From positions 2,337 to 66,336 of IMG/VR virus record IMGVR_UViG_3300031908_000002: a stretch of DNA of 64,000 nucleotides; one strand, written 5' to 3'. Position 1 is the stretch's first letter, and every line of letters starts with the position of its first letter. This DNA comes from a virus (Duplodnaviria > Caudoviricetes). The notes beneath the pieces are model-generated. The model ran no database searches. It saw nothing but the letters and a program-made list of their open reading frames with translations, and was not told the DNA's origin. Shown piece by piece: positions 3,749-34,821 of this stretch. The position numbers and the translations under genes are program-made.

Positions 3749-5545
3749 TTACCCCAAGATGGCTGTGAGAGCGGAGGCGATGTAGCCCAAGGCGCTGTCC
3801 AAGTCGGCCTGGACCAATGTCGAGGCGTTCAACGTGCCGCCCACCCAGATGCTGCCCCAGTGGTTGGTCGCATCGGACGGCACGTAAGACGGAGTGCCCG
3901 GAGTGCTTGGCGCCGCGCCAGAGGCTTGGGTGAAATAGACCATGGACGAGGGGCTGTGCGCCGCGCTGAAGTTCGCTACGCCCAGCACGAAGCCCGCCCA
4001 AATCACCGTGCCGGCGGTCAGGGTCAGGGCGGTGGACAGCATCACGGTGTTGAGGCCCTTGGTAATGCCCGTGACCTGTGGACCCAGCGCCAAGCGGGTG
4101 GAGATCTCGCCTTGGTTGTCGGAATAGATCGCCGGGTTGACCACGGAAGACCCGGAGGCTGCCGTGGCCCAGAAATGAATCCGGTCAACCACACAATCCT
4201 GCTGGATCAGGATCGAGCGCCCGCCGAAATACCCGTTGGCGAAGGTGGCTGAGGAAGCCGGGGCGAAGTCCGGCACGCCGAACTGCTTGCCCGCGATGAC
4301 GGTGGTGGCGGTGGCCCAGGCCTCGGCGCCGGACACCATCGTCAGAATCTGCCCATCGGTGCCTTTGGCCAACCGGGTCGCCGCGCCGCCCGAACCACCA
4401 ACGATCAAGTCGCCTGCGGTGGTCATTGGGTTGGTGAAGCCGCCCGAAGGTGCTGCCCACGCCTCTGCACCGGACACCATGGTCAGCACTTGGCCGTCAG
4501 TACCCTTGGCGAGACGGGTAGCCGCGCCCGACGCGCCGCCGACGATCAAGTCACCAGCGGTGGTCATCGGGTTGGTGACCTTGGCGTTCAACGCGGTTTG
4601 CAAATCCGTTTGATCGGAAAGGTCACCGGAAACGTGCCCCCAAAGGGCTTTTTCGTTTGCGTCTTGAAACCATAGATACAAGACGGCGTTGTCGGAAGGG
4701 TTACCCATAAGGGACGAGAATTGTACGTCGGTGCTCGGGGTTACCCAGCTCGGCAGGCCTTCTGTGAGTACGAGGGACTGGCCATCGGTGCCCTTCGGCA
4801 GGCGAGTAGCTGCGCCAGCGGTGCCGCCATAGATCAGGTCGCCCGAGGCGGTCATCACGTTGGTGAAGCTGGTCCCGTCAGCACCATCAGCACCATCAGC
4901 ACCGGCAGGGCCGTCCGCACCGGCAGGGCCTGCGAGCAGGCTCAAGGCGATCAGGTTCGTCCAGCTCCCAGCGCCGACATAGCGCCACTGGATGTGTGTG
5001 CTGTTCACCTGCAACTCGACGGCCACGCCGTTGGTCCCGTTCGTACCGTTGGACCCAGCAGGGCCTACCAGCTCGCTCAGCAGCTTGAGGTTGATCCACG
5101 TGGAGTCGCCCACGTAGCGCCACTGAATCCACGTGCTGGTGACTTGGAACTCAACCTGCTTGCCATTGGTGCCGTTGGTCCCGGCAGGGCCGGTGAGGGT
5201 GGCCAAGGAGACGAGTGCCGTCCACGCGGTATCACCCACGAAGCGCCAATTCAGGTAACCCCCGCTGACGCCGAACTCGACTTCACGCCCGTCCACGCCA
5301 TCGGTGCCGTCCGTACCGTCTGCACCGTCTGCACCGGCAGGGCCGGTGATCTCGTCGAGGTCGACAACATCAGTCCACGTGGTATCGCCTTCCAGTTGGT
5401 GCTGGATTTTGTGGCCGTTCTTGCGCAGCTTGATCGGACGGCCATCGGCGCCGCGAATACCACCCGCCGCAATCGGAACGGTGGACGCATGCTTACCCGG
5501 CAGCACCAGCACCTTGCCCTTCGGGTTGAAGACGATTAAGGCCAT
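3749..5545 (-). CDS. Collagen-like tail fibre protein with internal repeats
   Basis: GxxGxx stretches; four E(F/L).V....(I/L).WR(Y/F)VG..W..L...L.GPAG units; three (N)(P/V)MT.(A/S)GDLI.GG..GAATRL.KGTDGQ units. Confidence 0.7.
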   Translation of the reverse strand: MALIVFNPKGKVLVLPGKHASTVPIAAGGIRGADGRPIKLRKNGHKIQHQLEGDTTWTDVVDLDEITGPAGADGADGTDGTDGVDGREVEFGVSGGYLNWRFVGDTAWTALVSLATLTGPAGTNGTNGKQVEFQVTSTWIQWRYVGDSTWINLKLLSELVGPAGSNGTNGTNGVAVELQVNSTHIQWRYVGAGSWTNLIALSLLAGPAGADGPAGADGADGADGTSFTNVMTASGDLIYGGTAGAATRLPKGTDGQSLVLTEGLPSWVTPSTDVQFSSLMGNPSDNAVLYLWFQDANEKALWGHVSGDLSDQTDLQTALNAKVTNPMTTAGDLIVGGASGAATRLAKGTDGQVLTMVSGAEAWAAPSGGFTNPMTTAGDLIVGGSGGAATRLAKGTDGQILTMVSGAEAWATATTVIAGKQFGVPDFAPASSATFANGYFGGRSILIQQDCVVDRIHFWATAASGSSVVNPAIYSDNQGEISTRLALGPQVTGITKGLNTVMLSTALTLTAGTVIWAGFVLGVANFSAAHSPSSMVYFTQASGAAPSTPGTPSYVPSDATNHWGSIWVGGTLNASTLVQADLDSALGYIASALTAILG

Positions 5546-8591: not shown

Positions 8592-9230
8592 CTATTCGTG
8601 GACGACGCTCAGGGACTCGTAGACGATCCAGCCGCCTTCGGTGTCCGGGCCTACGTTGTCGATGACGTAAGCGCCGGCCTTGAAGTAGAACGGCGTCGGC
8701 AGCCAGCTCGGATGCACCGGGCACTCGAATTTCTGGCCGTTGAGCCAGATGACCAGTGTGCCGCCTTGGGTGACTTGGATGCGGAAGGTCGCCCTCGGGG
8801 TCAGGGTGGTGATCGGCTGGCGGATCACGGCAGGGGAGCCGCTGTCCTCAGCATGGACCCGTACCTCGGCGCGCAGCTCGTTGCCCATTTGCAGCAACTT
8901 GACGAAGGGCGCGCTGGCGCCGAAAGCGTGGACTTGGGCGAAGATCACCTTCATCGAGCTCGGCACCCGGCGGATCACGGCCACCCCGGTCAGGCTACTG
9001 CTCTTGAAATCGGCAGGGCGCCAGTTGAACAGCTCGGCGGTGTCACGCTTGGTCTCGCGCAGCTCGGTGCGCGGGGAGGAGCTACTGCCGGAGGTGCCGC
9101 TGGTGACCGGGCACCAGAAGTTCCAGTAGCCGTCCGGGTCCTGCCAGTGCAGGTTGCAGGGCGGGGCGATGATCTCGCCCTGCTCGTAGTCGTCGCCAGC
9201 GGCGGTGATGCGGTTGAAGTAGGGCTGCAT
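8592..9230 (-). CDS. Polysaccharide lyase family 7 (alginate lyase-like)
   Basis: PRTELRE, AQVH (QIH-like) and YFKAGAY, the three conserved PL7 blocks. Confidence 0.85.
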   Translation of the reverse strand: MQPYFNRITAAGDDYEQGEIIAPPCNLHWQDPDGYWNFWCPVTSGTSGSSSSPRTELRETKRDTAELFNWRPADFKSSSLTGVAVIRRVPSSMKVIFAQVHAFGASAPFVKLLQMGNELRAEVRVHAEDSGSPAVIRQPITTLTPRATFRIQVTQGGTLVIWLNGQKFECPVHPSWLPTPFYFKAGAYVIDNVGPDTEGGWIVYESLSVVHE

Positions 9231-25889: not shown

Positions 25890-25942
25890 CCAACCCGGCT
25901 CGCAAAGTCCCTTTGCGAGCCCCCTTCACCGAGGACTGCAAC

Positions 25943-26386
25943 ATGAAGCGATTCACCAACAGCGACTCTGACCAGATGGTCAAAGTCGTCTCCAAGGTTT
26001 TCGGCGGTGCCGAAGCCATCGTGCTGGAGAACCTTGTCTGCGAGGCCGCCCGCGAGTTCAGCACGAATTACGGCGGCGGCTCCTGGGATTTCATCACGGA
26101 CGACGAAGAGGCCAATGGCTTCTGGGTCCCGACCGACAAGGAAGCCTACAAGGTCATCGTGCCGAGCAACTACTACCACAACGAAGCCATGCAGGCGGTG
26201 GCGTTCGGCGCTGGCCTGACCTTGCTGATGGTCAACATGCTGGCTTGGCGGTTCCACGAAGCCGGCCACGTGAAGGCCGACCTGTACAGCAACAAGTACC
26301 ACGCTTTGTTCAACATGGTGTTCAACCTGTCCGAGAGCGAAGGCGACTTCTTGGACGGGGTGGCCGTCGCCGGGTTCATCGACTGA
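25943..26386 (+). CDS. klcA: ArdB/KlcA-family antirestriction protein
   Basis: E..V...AREF..NYGGGSWDF...NGFWVP...V...NYY....M.A.AFG..L.L...KY..L. Confidence 0.7.
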   Translation: MKRFTNSDSDQMVKVVSKVFGGAEAIVLENLVCEAAREFSTNYGGGSWDFITDDEEANGFWVPTDKEAYKVIVPSNYYHNEAMQAVAFGAGLTLLMVNMLAWRFHEAGHVKADLYSNKYHALFNMVFNLSESEGDFLDGVAVAGFID

Positions 26387-27727: not shown

Positions 27728-27757
27728 CCCCGGTGGCGGTGTACACTGCCACCGGGG
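27728..27757. repeat. 30-bp near-perfect palindrome centred on GTGTACAC
   Basis: CCCCGGTGGCGGTGTACACTGCCACCGGGG, one G:T mismatch. Confidence 0.8.
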
Positions 27758-31171: not shown

Positions 31172-31200
31172 TTGACAACAGTATCCATTTAGTGTACAAT
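31172..31200 (+). promoter_or_regulatory. Sigma70-type promoter
   Basis: TTGACA-N17-TACAAT. Confidence 0.8.
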
Positions 31201-31255: not shown

Positions 31256-31480
31256 ATGCTGAAGACAGAATTGGTGGACCGCATCGCGGCCAAGTCGGGC
31301 GTAGACCGACGATCCGCCGAGCGCATGCTGGAGGCAATGATCAGCTCCATCGCAGACGCTCTCTGGGAAGACGACCGCCTGCGAATCCCCGGCTTGGGCA
31401 CTTTTTACGCTCGCCTCAACTTTGAAGGCAAGCGCCGTATCAATTTCAATTCTGACAAACGACTGAGGGAAAGGGATTAA
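31256..31480 (+). CDS. HU/IHF-like histone-like protein with shortened beta-arm
   Basis: MLKTELVDRIA...AERMLEA....I..AL....RLRIPGLGTF...INF...KRLRE. Confidence 0.75.
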   Translation: MLKTELVDRIAAKSGVDRRSAERMLEAMISSIADALWEDDRLRIPGLGTFYARLNFEGKRRINFNSDKRLRERD

Positions 31481-32096: not shown

Positions 32097-32377
32097 ACGT
32101 GCTCAGGGACAGCCTCTTCGGCTGGCGCTTCTGGATGGGCACGCTGGCGACCTTCTGCCTGCACCTGATGCTGCTGGAAGTGGCCGGCTTCAACATCTGG
32201 GTGGTGCTGTTCATCAACATGATCGTTGGCTTCTGGCTGGGTGCATTGGCAGGGACTGCCGACCACGAAGAGCGCTACGAGCGGTTCCAGGCAGCACGGG
32301 CCGTTTGGGCAAAACGCTTTGAAGAGGCCTATCGCAAGATGGGCTACCGGATCATGGAGAAGAAAGATGTCATTTAA
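32081..32377 (+). CDS. Hypothetical membrane protein (98 aa)
   Basis: Two hydrophobic helices. Confidence 0.6.
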   Translation: MRRFLNVLRDSLFGWRFWMGTLATFCLHLMLLEVAGFNIWVVLFINMIVGFWLGALAGTADHEERYERFQAARAVWAKRFEEAYRKMGYRIMEKKDVI

Positions 32378-32738
32378 GGTTCCTGAAAGGTGCCGGGTCC
32401 GTGAAGGGCTGTTCGGCTCCGATGAAAGCTACGGCAACAACGGCATGTTCCTCGTCGTCTACCTCGGCGTGGAATGGAAAATCATGGCCGGTGACGGCGA
32501 CGGCTGGGAACACGTCAGCGTGAGCAACCCTGACGTGATGCCGAGCTGGCAGGTGATGAACCGGATCAAAGACCTGTGCTGGGGGCCGGAGGATTGCGTG
32601 ATGCAGCTCCATCCTCCGCACTCCGACTACGTGTCGTTCCACCCGAACTGCCTGCACCTGTGGCGCCCGATTGGCGGGGGCCTACCACGCCCACCGACCT
32701 ACATGGTCGGGCCTGTCACGGGCAAGGGCGAGGCATGA
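32367..32738 (+). CDS. Conserved-looking phage hypothetical protein
   Basis: GWEHVSVS...PSW..M..IKDL.W..ED.VMQ.HPP..YV..HP.CLHLWRP. Confidence 0.65.
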   Translation: MSFKVPERCRVREGLFGSDESYGNNGMFLVVYLGVEWKIMAGDGDGWEHVSVSNPDVMPSWQVMNRIKDLCWGPEDCVMQLHPPHSDYVSFHPNCLHLWRPIGGGLPRPPTYMVGPVTGKGEA

Positions 32739-32956
32739 ACTACGCTATCGAACGGCGCATGCACCTGATCGACTTCCTGCTGGCGTACTACGGCTACGTC
32801 CAACGGGACGCGCTGATGAACTACAGCGGGATCAGTCAGGCGCAGGCCAGCCTCGACCTGACCATGTACCGGGAAATGGCTGACGGCAACATGACCTACA
32901 ACGCCAGCGCCAAGCGCTGGGAACGTAGCGATACGTTTGCGCGGTTGTACGAATAA
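32735..32956 (+). CDS. Stand-alone BrxR/CapW-like winged HTH protein, copy 1
   Basis: YAIERRMHLIDFLLAYYGYVQRDALMNYSGISQAQASLDLTMYREMADGNMTYNASAKRW. Confidence 0.65.
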   Translation: MNYAIERRMHLIDFLLAYYGYVQRDALMNYSGISQAQASLDLTMYREMADGNMTYNASAKRWERSDTFARLYE

Positions 32957-32972
32957 CTGGAAGGAGTCAGGT

Positions 32973-33230
32973 ATGTCCTGCATCAAAAACGGCGCCCGCG
33001 TGTATCTGGAGAACTATGGTTCCAGTGCCCCGGCTGACCTGTTCGCCGTAGGCAATTGCATCGTGGTGCGTTTCCCGCGAGCCTTCGACGAGTGCTGTGA
33101 ATTTGAGAGCCCGTCTACACCGATTACGCACGTCGTCGAAGTGTTCGACGGCAGCGATTACTACTGGCGTAAAGACCTCGGGGTGCTGGTTATTCCCCGC
33201 CAACTGATCAAGGAGGCCGACCGTGGCTGA
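32973..33230 (+). CDS. Hypothetical protein
   Basis: AAGGAG SD. Confidence 0.65.
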   Translation: MSCIKNGARVYLENYGSSAPADLFAVGNCIVVRFPRAFDECCEFESPSTPITHVVEVFDGSDYYWRKDLGVLVIPRQLIKEADRG

Positions 33231-33675
33231 TTGCATTTCTTTCTACGACGAACTGCGCTTCGACACGCGCAACCCTGAGTTCACCAGCGTCTCCGTGTTC
33301 ATCCGCTGTGAAGGCGACTGTCCGTTCTTCATGCACGGTTGGCATCGCAAAGACTTTGCGAAGAGCATCCCCACTCAGGAGATTTTCAACCTGATCTGGA
33401 CCGGGCAGGAATCCCCGATGGAATGGGACCGGGTGGCGCCAGCCCCTGTTCTGGCCCCGGTGATCTTCAACCCGTGGGACCGCATCCCGGTGCCCGTGGA
33501 ACAACTGGTGTCGTGGCGCGTGGCCCTGAATAAAGGTTGCGATCAGGCCATGGGCGACGAACTGGCCGAGCAGATCAACGGCCACCTGACCAGCGTGCCG
33601 CAGTGGGACAAGTGCTGCCCGACCTGTCAGGCCCACGACATGATGATGCAAGTGCAGAGGAACCCGCCGCAATGA
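33223..33675 (+). CDS. Hypothetical protein, intragenic palindrome
   Basis: AAGGAGG SD; palindrome encodes RKDFAK. Confidence 0.65.
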   Translation: MADCISFYDELRFDTRNPEFTSVSVFIRCEGDCPFFMHGWHRKDFAKSIPTQEIFNLIWTGQESPMEWDRVAPAPVLAPVIFNPWDRIPVPVEQLVSWRVALNKGCDQAMGDELAEQINGHLTSVPQWDKCCPTCQAHDMMMQVQRNPPQ

Positions 33676-33902
33676 AAGCGTGGACCGACTTCTCGTTTGT
33701 CGAACTCGGGGACAAGGCAGGGGCGCTGGCGCCTGTGCGCGATTGCGTGGTGCTCAGCTATGACCGCAAAAAGTTCTGCCGGATTTTGATCGAAGACGTC
33801 TTCACTGCGGTCAAGGCCAGCTACCTGTACAGCCAGCCGGGGCGCAGCCGGGAAGTTCCGCACCTGACCCATGAGCAACTGCTGGAGCTGCCGGAGAGAT
33901 GA
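33672..33902 (+). CDS. Hypothetical protein
   Basis: ATGA overlap. Confidence 0.6.
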   Translation: MKAWTDFSFVELGDKAGALAPVRDCVVLSYDRKKFCRILIEDVFTAVKASYLYSQPGRSREVPHLTHEQLLELPER

Positions 33903-34120
33903 GGTACGCCGTTGAGCAACGCCTGCGCCTGATCGACTTCCTGCTGCTGCACTACGGCAGCGTGGGGCCTGACCAGTTATTGGACTACTACGGCATTGCC
34001 CCTGCCACGGCCACTCGCGATTTCTCGCTTTACCGTCAGCAGTTTCCTGGGAATGCTGTGTTCGATACCCACTCCAAACTCTGGATAAAGGGGGTGAACT
34101 TCAAACGCGGTTACAGCTAA
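33899..34120 (+). CDS. Stand-alone BrxR/CapW-like winged HTH protein, copy 2
   Basis: YAVEQRLRLIDFLLLHYGSV....LLDYYGIAPATATRDFSLYRQQFPGNAVFDTHSKLW. Confidence 0.7.
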   Translation: MRYAVEQRLRLIDFLLLHYGSVGPDQLLDYYGIAPATATRDFSLYRQQFPGNAVFDTHSKLWIKGVNFKRGYS

Positions 34121-34132
34121 GAAGGGGGCGCC

Positions 34133-34345
34133 ATGGCAGAACACCACTGCGCAAATTGCGGGAACCCGGATGTAGTACGACTTGCAACCTGCCATATGCA
34201 GGAGATGAATGAGGTGCAACCGGGCGATCCGGTGGGCTATGTCCACTGTCCCGATTGCCATCATGAAACGCCTTGGCACTTGAGCCACAGGCAAAACCAC
34301 CTGATCTGTAGCAACCGCGCAGACAGGAAAACAAAACCGGAATAA
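34133..34345 (+). CDS. Small Zn-finger protein
   Basis: CANC...CPDC. Confidence 0.55.
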   Translation: MAEHHCANCGNPDVVRLATCHMQEMNEVQPGDPVGYVHCPDCHHETPWHLSHRQNHLICSNRADRKTKPE

Positions 34346-34374
34346 CTCCGGCCATTAGCACTAGGGGAATACAT

Positions 34375-34821
34375 ATGTTGGGTATGGGGAAATTGTTCGG
34401 TCGTAAAGCACGTCAAGCCACTCAAGCTGTCGTGAAGTTCGAGAACCGCGACCTTGCACAGGCCGCGATCTACGGCTGCTACTGGGTGGCAAGTGCTGAC
34501 GGGGAGATCGGAACGAAGGAAATGGACAAGACCGACCGCCTGCTGCGCAACGCGCCGCAACTGTCGGGCTTTGGGGCTGAGCTGGGCCTGATCATTGATC
34601 GCGCCAAGGCTGACTATCTGGAAGGTGGTGCTCGCATCATCCGTATGAACGCGAAGAAAGAGCTGGGGGACTTGGCGCACGACCCGGAAAACGCCGGCAT
34701 CGTCCTGAACTTCATGCTGACCGTCGCTGAGGCGGACGGCGAGATTCAGGTTCCGGCTGAGATGGAAGTTCTGGAACAGGCGGCTGGCTGCCTGAACCTG
34801 CGTCTGAAGGACTTCCTGTGA
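34375..34821 (+). CDS. terB: TerB-family (tellurite-resistance-like) protein
   Basis: VASADGEI...E...VAEADGEI...EMEVLEQ.A..L.L. Confidence 0.8.
   Translation: MLGMGKLFGRKARQATQAVVKFENRDLAQAAIYGCYWVASADGEIGTKEMDKTDRLLRNAPQLSGFGAELGLIIDRAKADYLEGGARIIRMNAKKELGDLAHDPENAGIVLNFMLTVAEADGEIQVPAEMEVLEQAAGCLNLRLKDFL

Follow-up and report, generated by a model that had tools for sequence, protein, structure and literature searches.

The stretch of DNA analysed here, called the window below, comprises 64,000 nucleotides (bases 2337–66336) of the 66,336-bp single-contig virus record IMGVR_UViG_3300031908_000002 (Caudoviricetes). It carries two small genes, P0001 and P0002, whose products are related to the winged helix-turn-helix (wHTH) heads of BrxR and CapW, the bacterial repressors of defence systems such as BREX (bacteriophage exclusion) and CBASS (cyclic oligonucleotide-based antiphage signalling system):

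32735–32956, plus strand: P0001, a stand-alone WHD_BrxR wHTH protein of 73 residues, S type, with a CapW-like recognition helix (AQASLD)
33899–34120, plus strand: P0002, a stand-alone WHD_BrxR wHTH protein of 73 residues, T type, with a BrxR-like recognition helix (ATATRDF)

The start codon of each gene overlaps the stop codon of the preceding one (ATGA) and is preceded by a Shine-Dalgarno-like GAGG/GGAG. An earlier reading made from the sequence alone (the sequence-only reading) had described two paralogous 73-residue open reading frames (ORFs) at these positions, and BLASTP indeed aligns the two proteins over all 73 residues without a gap (42% identity, E 1e-22). The three genes lying between the copies (span 32735–34120) are unrelated to them.

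The WHD_BrxR family (PF26109) appears in the precomputed annotation of P0002 and of all 64 short homologues; local scans of both proteins with Pfam (in a copy that does not include the PF26109 model), PHROGs, PADLOC and NCBIfam gave nothing useful. When both proteins were compared with all PDB chains using phmmer, the matches were exclusively BrxR and CapW. Residues 4–69 of P0002 align with residues 13–78 of Escherichia fergusonii BrxR (PDB 7QFZ; E 4.4e-8, 33% identity, root-mean-square deviation (rmsd) 0.6 Å), and residues 4–71 of P0001 with residues 23–90 of Pseudomonas aeruginosa CapW (PDB 7TB5; E 3.7e-10). AlphaFold2 models of P0001 and P0002 (predicted local distance difference test, pLDDT, of 97 and 96, respectively) consist of a long helix 1 (residues 2–19), the helices 2 and 3 of the helix-turn-helix (24–31 and 35–48) and a wing formed by a beta-hairpin (strands 53–56 and 61–64). 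In a Foldseek search with the P0002 model, BrxR and CapW structures fill the top 13 places (template modelling (TM) score 0.84–0.96, rmsd 0.6–1.2 Å), with TM scores of 0.93–0.96 to 7QFZ, 7TB6 and 7TB5, and are followed by generic winged helices with E > 0.01.

Both proteins stop (residue 73 followed by the stop codon) at the boundary between the wHTH and the linker, and the WYL sensor, the linker helices and the WCX domain are all absent; the ORFs downstream of P0001 and P0002 are unrelated. In the CapW of Rhizobium leguminosarum, the wHTH corresponds to residues 1–70 and the linker to residues 71–136 (PMC11662680), and the dimer core of BrxR is made of helices 71–119 and of swapped WYL domains (PMC9122589). 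Judged by sequence and modelled structure, P0001 and P0002 are exactly the BrxR/CapW wHTH domain, folded and stand-alone. The sequence-only reading had proposed both this match and the lack of the sensor, with a profile or structural comparison as its check: the PDB search, PF26109 and Foldseek agree on the match, the fold is the same as that of BrxR/CapW (TM 0.93–0.96) and the proteins end where the sensor-bearing part would begin. Unlike the full-length repressors, they are encoded among phage early accessory genes and not beside a defence operon.

These two proteins belong to a sizeable family. An exhaustive profile search with a limit of E ≤ 1e-3 yielded 1726 relatives. Almost all of the ~70 best are short, and the full-length relatives (~290 residues, wHTH-WYL-WCX) appear from E ~5e-16; it was this search that reached the full-length proteins, a word-based search for longer relatives having given one protein of 141 residues. 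Among 215 collected proteins, 148 end at most 12 residues past the domain. The stand-alone family was found in 21 IMG/VR viral contigs, in phage-like metagenome contigs, in Stenotrophomonas phage Sonora and in at least 14 ESM-Atlas clusters of 68–77 residues, mostly from Uroviricota, as well as at four loci of a species-representative genome set (a search limited by its patterns). In 46 of 400 Gammaproteobacteria genomes the domain is present, nearly always in frames of ~300 residues. Twelve residues (Y3, A4, E6, R8, I12, D13, F14, L15, Y19, G20, D41 and Y45) do not vary among 66 short homologues, and the residue pattern that had been read from P0001 and P0002 equals the consensus of these homologues. 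In the literature searched, no paper was found that deals with stand-alone BrxR/CapW wHTH proteins of phages.

The stand-alone proteins also differ from the full-length ones at five positions of the domain, and column statistics indicate that this split holds in both clades (S and T, described below):

Position 10: R in stand-alone proteins; E in full-length S-type and A/E in full-length T-type proteins
Position 15: L in stand-alone proteins; R in full-length S-type and C/S/K in full-length T-type proteins
Position 18: H/Q in stand-alone proteins; W in full-length S-type and F/Y in full-length T-type proteins
Position 19: Y in stand-alone proteins; E in full-length S-type and L/F in full-length T-type proteins
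Position 30: Y/F in stand-alone proteins; mostly F/Y in full-length S-type proteins and mixed in full-length T-type proteins

All 26 sampled full-length proteins have an aromatic residue (F/W/Y) at position 18, which the stand-alone family has lost. By their sequences, the stand-alone proteins are a mostly phage-borne, adapted subfamily and not fragments or debris.

Complex prediction was run on the P0001 + P0002 pair, a design that does not separate heterodimers from homodimers. The predicted complex has an ipSAE (interaction prediction score from aligned errors) of 0.80, the best of three controls giving 0.01; this mark is attained by 58 of the 80 solved complexes and 2 of the 110 mismatched pairs used for comparison. 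The runs share at least 86% of their contacts and the pLDDT of the partners is at least 91. The predicted interface is two-fold symmetric, involves residues 10/11, 14–15, 17–19 and 23–30 and coincides with the stand-alone signature. The hydrophobic substitutions on this predicted interface and the loss of the aromatic residue at position 18 both speak for direct head-to-head pairing of the stand-alone proteins, without further contact with a WYL domain or a linker. In CapW, the binding of single-stranded DNA (ssDNA) shifts the two heads ~13 Å apart and DNA is released (PMC11662680). As the WYL, linker and WCX parts are absent from P0001 and P0002, the predicted head-only dimer would not have this ssDNA switch.

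The same surfaces bear on the idea that the target is a protein, the free head docking on host BrxR or CapW and competing for the WYL/linker surface or for the head-to-head contact, which would disturb the regulator. Each wHTH packs on the WYL domain of its partner in the full-length dimers, so that a free head could in principle compete. However, stand-alone proteins have H/Q instead of the aromatic residue at position 18, and their positions 15 and 19 are hydrophobic where full-length proteins have charged or polar residues, so that the surfaces look diverged rather than complementary. Furthermore, breaking a repressor would raise the expression of defence genes, to the detriment of the phage. 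Such a mode of action is hardly credible.

A tree of this domain, built on 70 residues, lacks robustness, and the stand-alone signature common to both clades might point to another root; with this reservation, its deepest split (support 0.86–0.89) separates P0001 from P0002:

S clade: QAS-x-D recognition helix, includes P0001, 44 stand-alone and 11 full-length proteins
T clade: x-TRD recognition helix, includes P0002, 102 stand-alone and 15 full-length proteins

On this sequence evidence, the paralogy of P0001 and P0002 is an old split. S and T copies occur together in at least three phage lineages: that of the window phage and of the related contig L067, in which the orthologues of P0001 and P0002 are 86% and 79% identical and the gene order is the same, the locus L009 and the L010–L019 group, the two copies being adjacent in the last two. 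Another locus, L002, carries two T copies. Related phages show a recurrent module in which a DUF7694 gene, one or more stand-alone WHD genes and a DUF7352 gene follow each other (L014, 8675–11510; L004, 4419–6754).

P0001 has every conserved DNA-contact position of the domain (R8, R24, S/G34, Q/T37, S/T39 and K60). Its residues R24, S34, Q37 and S39 correspond to R32, S42, Q45 and S47 of Stenotrophomonas maltophilia CapW, whose mutation abolished DNA binding (PMC9122588).

The full-length relatives give an idea of the DNA that such heads may recognize. P0160 is encoded divergently from a type III CBASS operon, P0200 adjoins ThiF/JAB genes, P0171 an MmeI-type restriction-modification gene and P0185 a TIR gene. 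The sequence CGTATA-N5-TATACG is found upstream of three independent full-length regulators with a PQAS-x-D helix and constitutes a candidate CapW-type operator core:

L032, 3911–3933: perfect copy
L071, ~66 nt before the gene: perfect copy
L031, 3941–3959: copy with one mismatch

The published CapW probe from Escherichia coli upec-117 reads CGTATA-ATAAT-GCTACG and agrees with this core. The pairing of the PQAS-x-D helix with CGTATA-N5-TATACG may hold throughout this class, as a helix-to-operator rule. Upstream of full-length regulators with an AAATRD helix, ATCATCA-N3/4-TGATGAT palindromes or half-sites are found (L038, L042, L044 and L065). Other recognition helices go with other sites and no general helix-operator code is claimed. 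One Frateuria metagenome-assembled genome combines a full-length CapW-like gene with a stand-alone copy, both having the PQASLDL helix.

In the window, sites of the CGTATA-N5-TATACG, ATCATCA-N-TGATGAT and CCAGATAGT types are no more frequent than expected by chance, and CGTATA-N5-TATACG itself was not found in the window or in the Sonora genome. Over 525 kb of phage loci, 8 CapW-type sites were seen for 10.8 expected. A sequence that has one mismatch from the CapW-type core, GTCTA-AAAAG-TATAC, precedes the tandem S+T pair by ~3.2 kb in one phage group, in which it is conserved (L011, 6525; L012, 6791; L014, 6788; L015, 6791; L019, 6755), and could be a phage operator or be due to chance.

The window phage does carry a repeated palindrome, TCGCAAAG-N1-3-CTTTGCGA, with 24 exact copies between 542 and 57615 for 0 expected, and L067 has three copies in 9.3 kb. 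As an alternative to repressors of host defence, the sequence-only reading had envisaged that P0001 and P0002 are the cognate binders of a phage palindrome. Inverted repeats are the usual sites of dimeric wHTH proteins, and L067 has both genes and the palindrome. However, neither this CGCAAAG palindrome nor any other recurrent palindrome was found in 25 other loci of the family or in the whole Sonora genome, which shows this palindrome to be specific to the window phage/L067 lineage. Moreover, its 8-bp arms and variable spacer of 1–3 nt depart from the half-sites of 10–11 bp and the fixed 5-bp spacer of BrxR/CapW. This alternative is therefore disfavoured and appears very unlikely. The window contains another palindrome, near-perfect and of 30 bp, centred on GTGTACAC in an intergenic gap (27728–27757).

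P0001 and P0002 belong to an array of small genes, whose main features are the following:

31172–31200, plus strand: sigma-70-like promoter TTGACA-17-TACAAT, 11 of 12 positions, the sole such site in the window
32364–32738, plus strand: DUF7694 gene, immediately 5' of P0001 and translationally coupled to it, a neighbour kept in related phages
32973–33230, plus strand: small gene between P0001 and P0002, no family match
33223–33675, plus strand: small gene between P0001 and P0002, no family match
33672–33902, plus strand: small gene between P0001 and P0002, no family match
34133–34821, plus strand: gene for a Cys-rich zinc-ribbon-like protein of 70 residues followed by a TerB-like gene, 3' of P0002, an order kept in L067
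35602–35620, plus strand: terminator-like hairpin found by a consensus scan only, a possible end of the transcription unit

The promoter is kept in L067 (at 5312–5340) and is likely the start of the operon that holds both wHTH genes. Downstream of it lie an HU-like gene and then the whole array through P0001 and P0002. The HU-like gene is listed from 31199 but its true start is probably the internal ATG at 31256, as residue 20 is the first one covered by the Pfam match and the orthologue in L067 is 74 residues long. Contigs from three metatranscriptome libraries, 100% identical to the window, span 32586–32882 and 33990–34139; they are not counted as expression, because such libraries can contain DNA and transcripts cannot be demonstrated from contigs. 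The same early array contains, 6 kb upstream, a homologue of antirestriction proteins (25913–26386, plus strand; PF03230 Antirestrict, E 5.6e-9). L067 also has an Antirestrict gene, together with a gene whose product matches the CbtA_toxin family.

Elsewhere, the phage genome encodes RadC, an SbcCD-like pair and a protein with an alginate lyase domain (8592–9230, minus strand; PF08787, E 2e-23) that could be a depolymerase. This last gene and the P. aeruginosa CapW as best PDB match are only a hint of a Pseudomonas host. No integrase was found among 30 window proteins scanned with Pfam. The whole stretch is present in one soil metagenome run, possibly its source; other runs hold small shares of it and say nothing firm on habitat.

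P0001 and P0002 may also be regarded as transcription factors of the phage itself, acting for instance in an early-to-middle switch or as autoregulators of an accessory or anti-defence operon similar to the Aca proteins, on sites that are not simple perfect palindromes. Most small helix-turn-helix proteins from phage early regions regulate phage genes, both genes are in one operon behind a near-consensus promoter together with accessory genes that include the Antirestrict homologue, and the T-type helix is conserved across phages. Like P0001 and P0002, Aca proteins are small phage helix-turn-helix proteins encoded within accessory or anti-defence arrays. However, no sequence relation between them was found, Aca proteins regulate the promoter of the phage and not those of the host, and no inverted-repeat operator of the kind was seen at the operon promoter of the window. 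At this promoter (31172–31200), no inverted repeat is conserved between the window and L067, though imperfect sites may be present. More widely, a search up to 10 kb around the stand-alone gene did not find any 6+6 palindrome common to phage loci that are unrelated, and the window does not contain operators that resemble those of the full-length relatives. One candidate, AGTGTAC, came from a palindrome of L064 that resembles the -10 region of the window promoter; it was rejected, as the motif is not enriched. Finally, self-regulators of phages usually diversify their recognition helices, which the stand-alone family does not do. A role in the regulation of phage genes thus appears rather unlikely, without being negligible.

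WYL repressors, including BrxR, CapW and their relatives, control many defence islands, and recent work shows that derepression of these regulators in response to ssDNA primes immunity and prevents the induction of prophages. The reading tentatively preferred here, and which is quite possible, is that P0001 and P0002 are constitutive, self-dimerising and sensor-less mimics of the CapW/BrxR defence repressors of the host. Their dimerisation is predicted from modelling, and their DNA target and their role against defence are inferred with due caution. The sequence-only reading had suggested sensor-blind repressors that lock host defence: the sensor is indeed missing, and the part that concerns host defence is plausible. 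It gains circumstantial support from the DNA-contact residues of P0001, the CapW operator that is absent from the phage, the relatives linked to defence and the signature of self-dimerisation.

If P0001 and P0002 are mimics of defence repressors, their action could be viewed as follows. Both genes would be transcribed from a host-type promoter with the other early accessory genes. In the bacterial repressors, the linker, WYL and WCX parts hold the dimer together and separate the wHTH heads upon the sensing of ssDNA; in the phage proteins, which lack them, two heads would pair directly through hydrophobic residues of helices 1 and 2 (a patch of L15, Y19 and Y/F30), forming either homodimers or a P0001:P0002 heterodimer. 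Such a dimer would bind DNA constitutively, with no ligand able to release it. By operator mimicry, P0001 would occupy the CGTATA-N5-TATACG-type operators of CapW-controlled defence promoters, and P0002 would do likewise at the operators of TRD-type BrxR-like regulators. The defence operons would then stay repressed once the host repressor releases its operator during infection or DNA damage.

Several points weigh against this model. In one assay, the derepression of CapW was reported not to be required for robust CBASS defence (PMC9122588), and it is uncertain what a lytic phage would gain from blocking induction. The predicted dimer may be a memory of the solved BrxR/CapW dimers, and it leaves heterodimers and homodimers unseparated. 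The operators of full-length relatives are diverse overall, the helix-to-operator link resting on four loci. P0002 keeps R8 and K60 but has P24 (where the family has Arg), A34, T37 and T39, and thus differs at all four of the CapW contacts that were mutated. Lastly, the stand-alone T helix, ATATRD, is near-uniform across very different phages whereas full-length T helices vary; this uniformity fits poorly with a mimic that would track diverse host operators.

P0001 and P0002 may be compared with the closest known systems. CapW, the CBASS-associated wHTH-WYL-WCX repressor (PDB 7TB5, 7TB6 and 9C5G), shares with P0001 its fold, the QASLD helix and the four DNA-binding residues; however, P0001 has no linker, WYL or WCX domain, is a phage product whose gene does not adjoin a defence operon, and has L15, Y19 and Y30 where CapW has R/E-type residues. 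In the same way, P0002 aligns over residues 4–69 with BrxR, the repressor of BREX and defence islands (PDB 7QFZ and 7T8K/7T8L; rmsd 0.6 Å), but consists of the domain alone, with neither the WYL sensor nor the C-terminal dimerisation domain, and has a Pro at the conserved Arg24. Among the stand-alone WHD_BrxR proteins of phages, CPT_Sonora_088 of Stenotrophomonas phage Sonora, annotated as a 'hypothetical protein', is also ~73 residues long, shows 52–58% identity and likewise comes from a siphovirus, in a region of small early genes. Only one copy, of the S type, is present in Sonora, whereas the window phage carries an S and a T copy.

Extended to the family, the proposal becomes that phages carry minimal, self-dimerising and ligand-blind heads of defence repressors, in two specificity classes that are often paired, and that, when a phage infects or a prophage is induced, these heads occupy the defence operators of the host and keep ssDNA from inducing islands that include CBASS and BREX. 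In this general form it is conceivable, though open to real doubt. The helix-operator pairs (PQAS-x-D with CGTATA-N5-TATACG; AAATRD with ATCATCA-N3/4-TGATGAT) make the idea of mimicry directly testable. If P0001 and P0002 proved to regulate phage genes instead, they would still belong to a large and uncharacterised family of phage regulators of unusual origin. If they are mimics of defence repressors, they would provide a ready-made constitutive repressor for CapW/BrxR-controlled promoters, and the transcriptional lock-down of defence by such heads would represent a new class of counter-defence, which acts on the regulation of the defence systems and not on their effectors.

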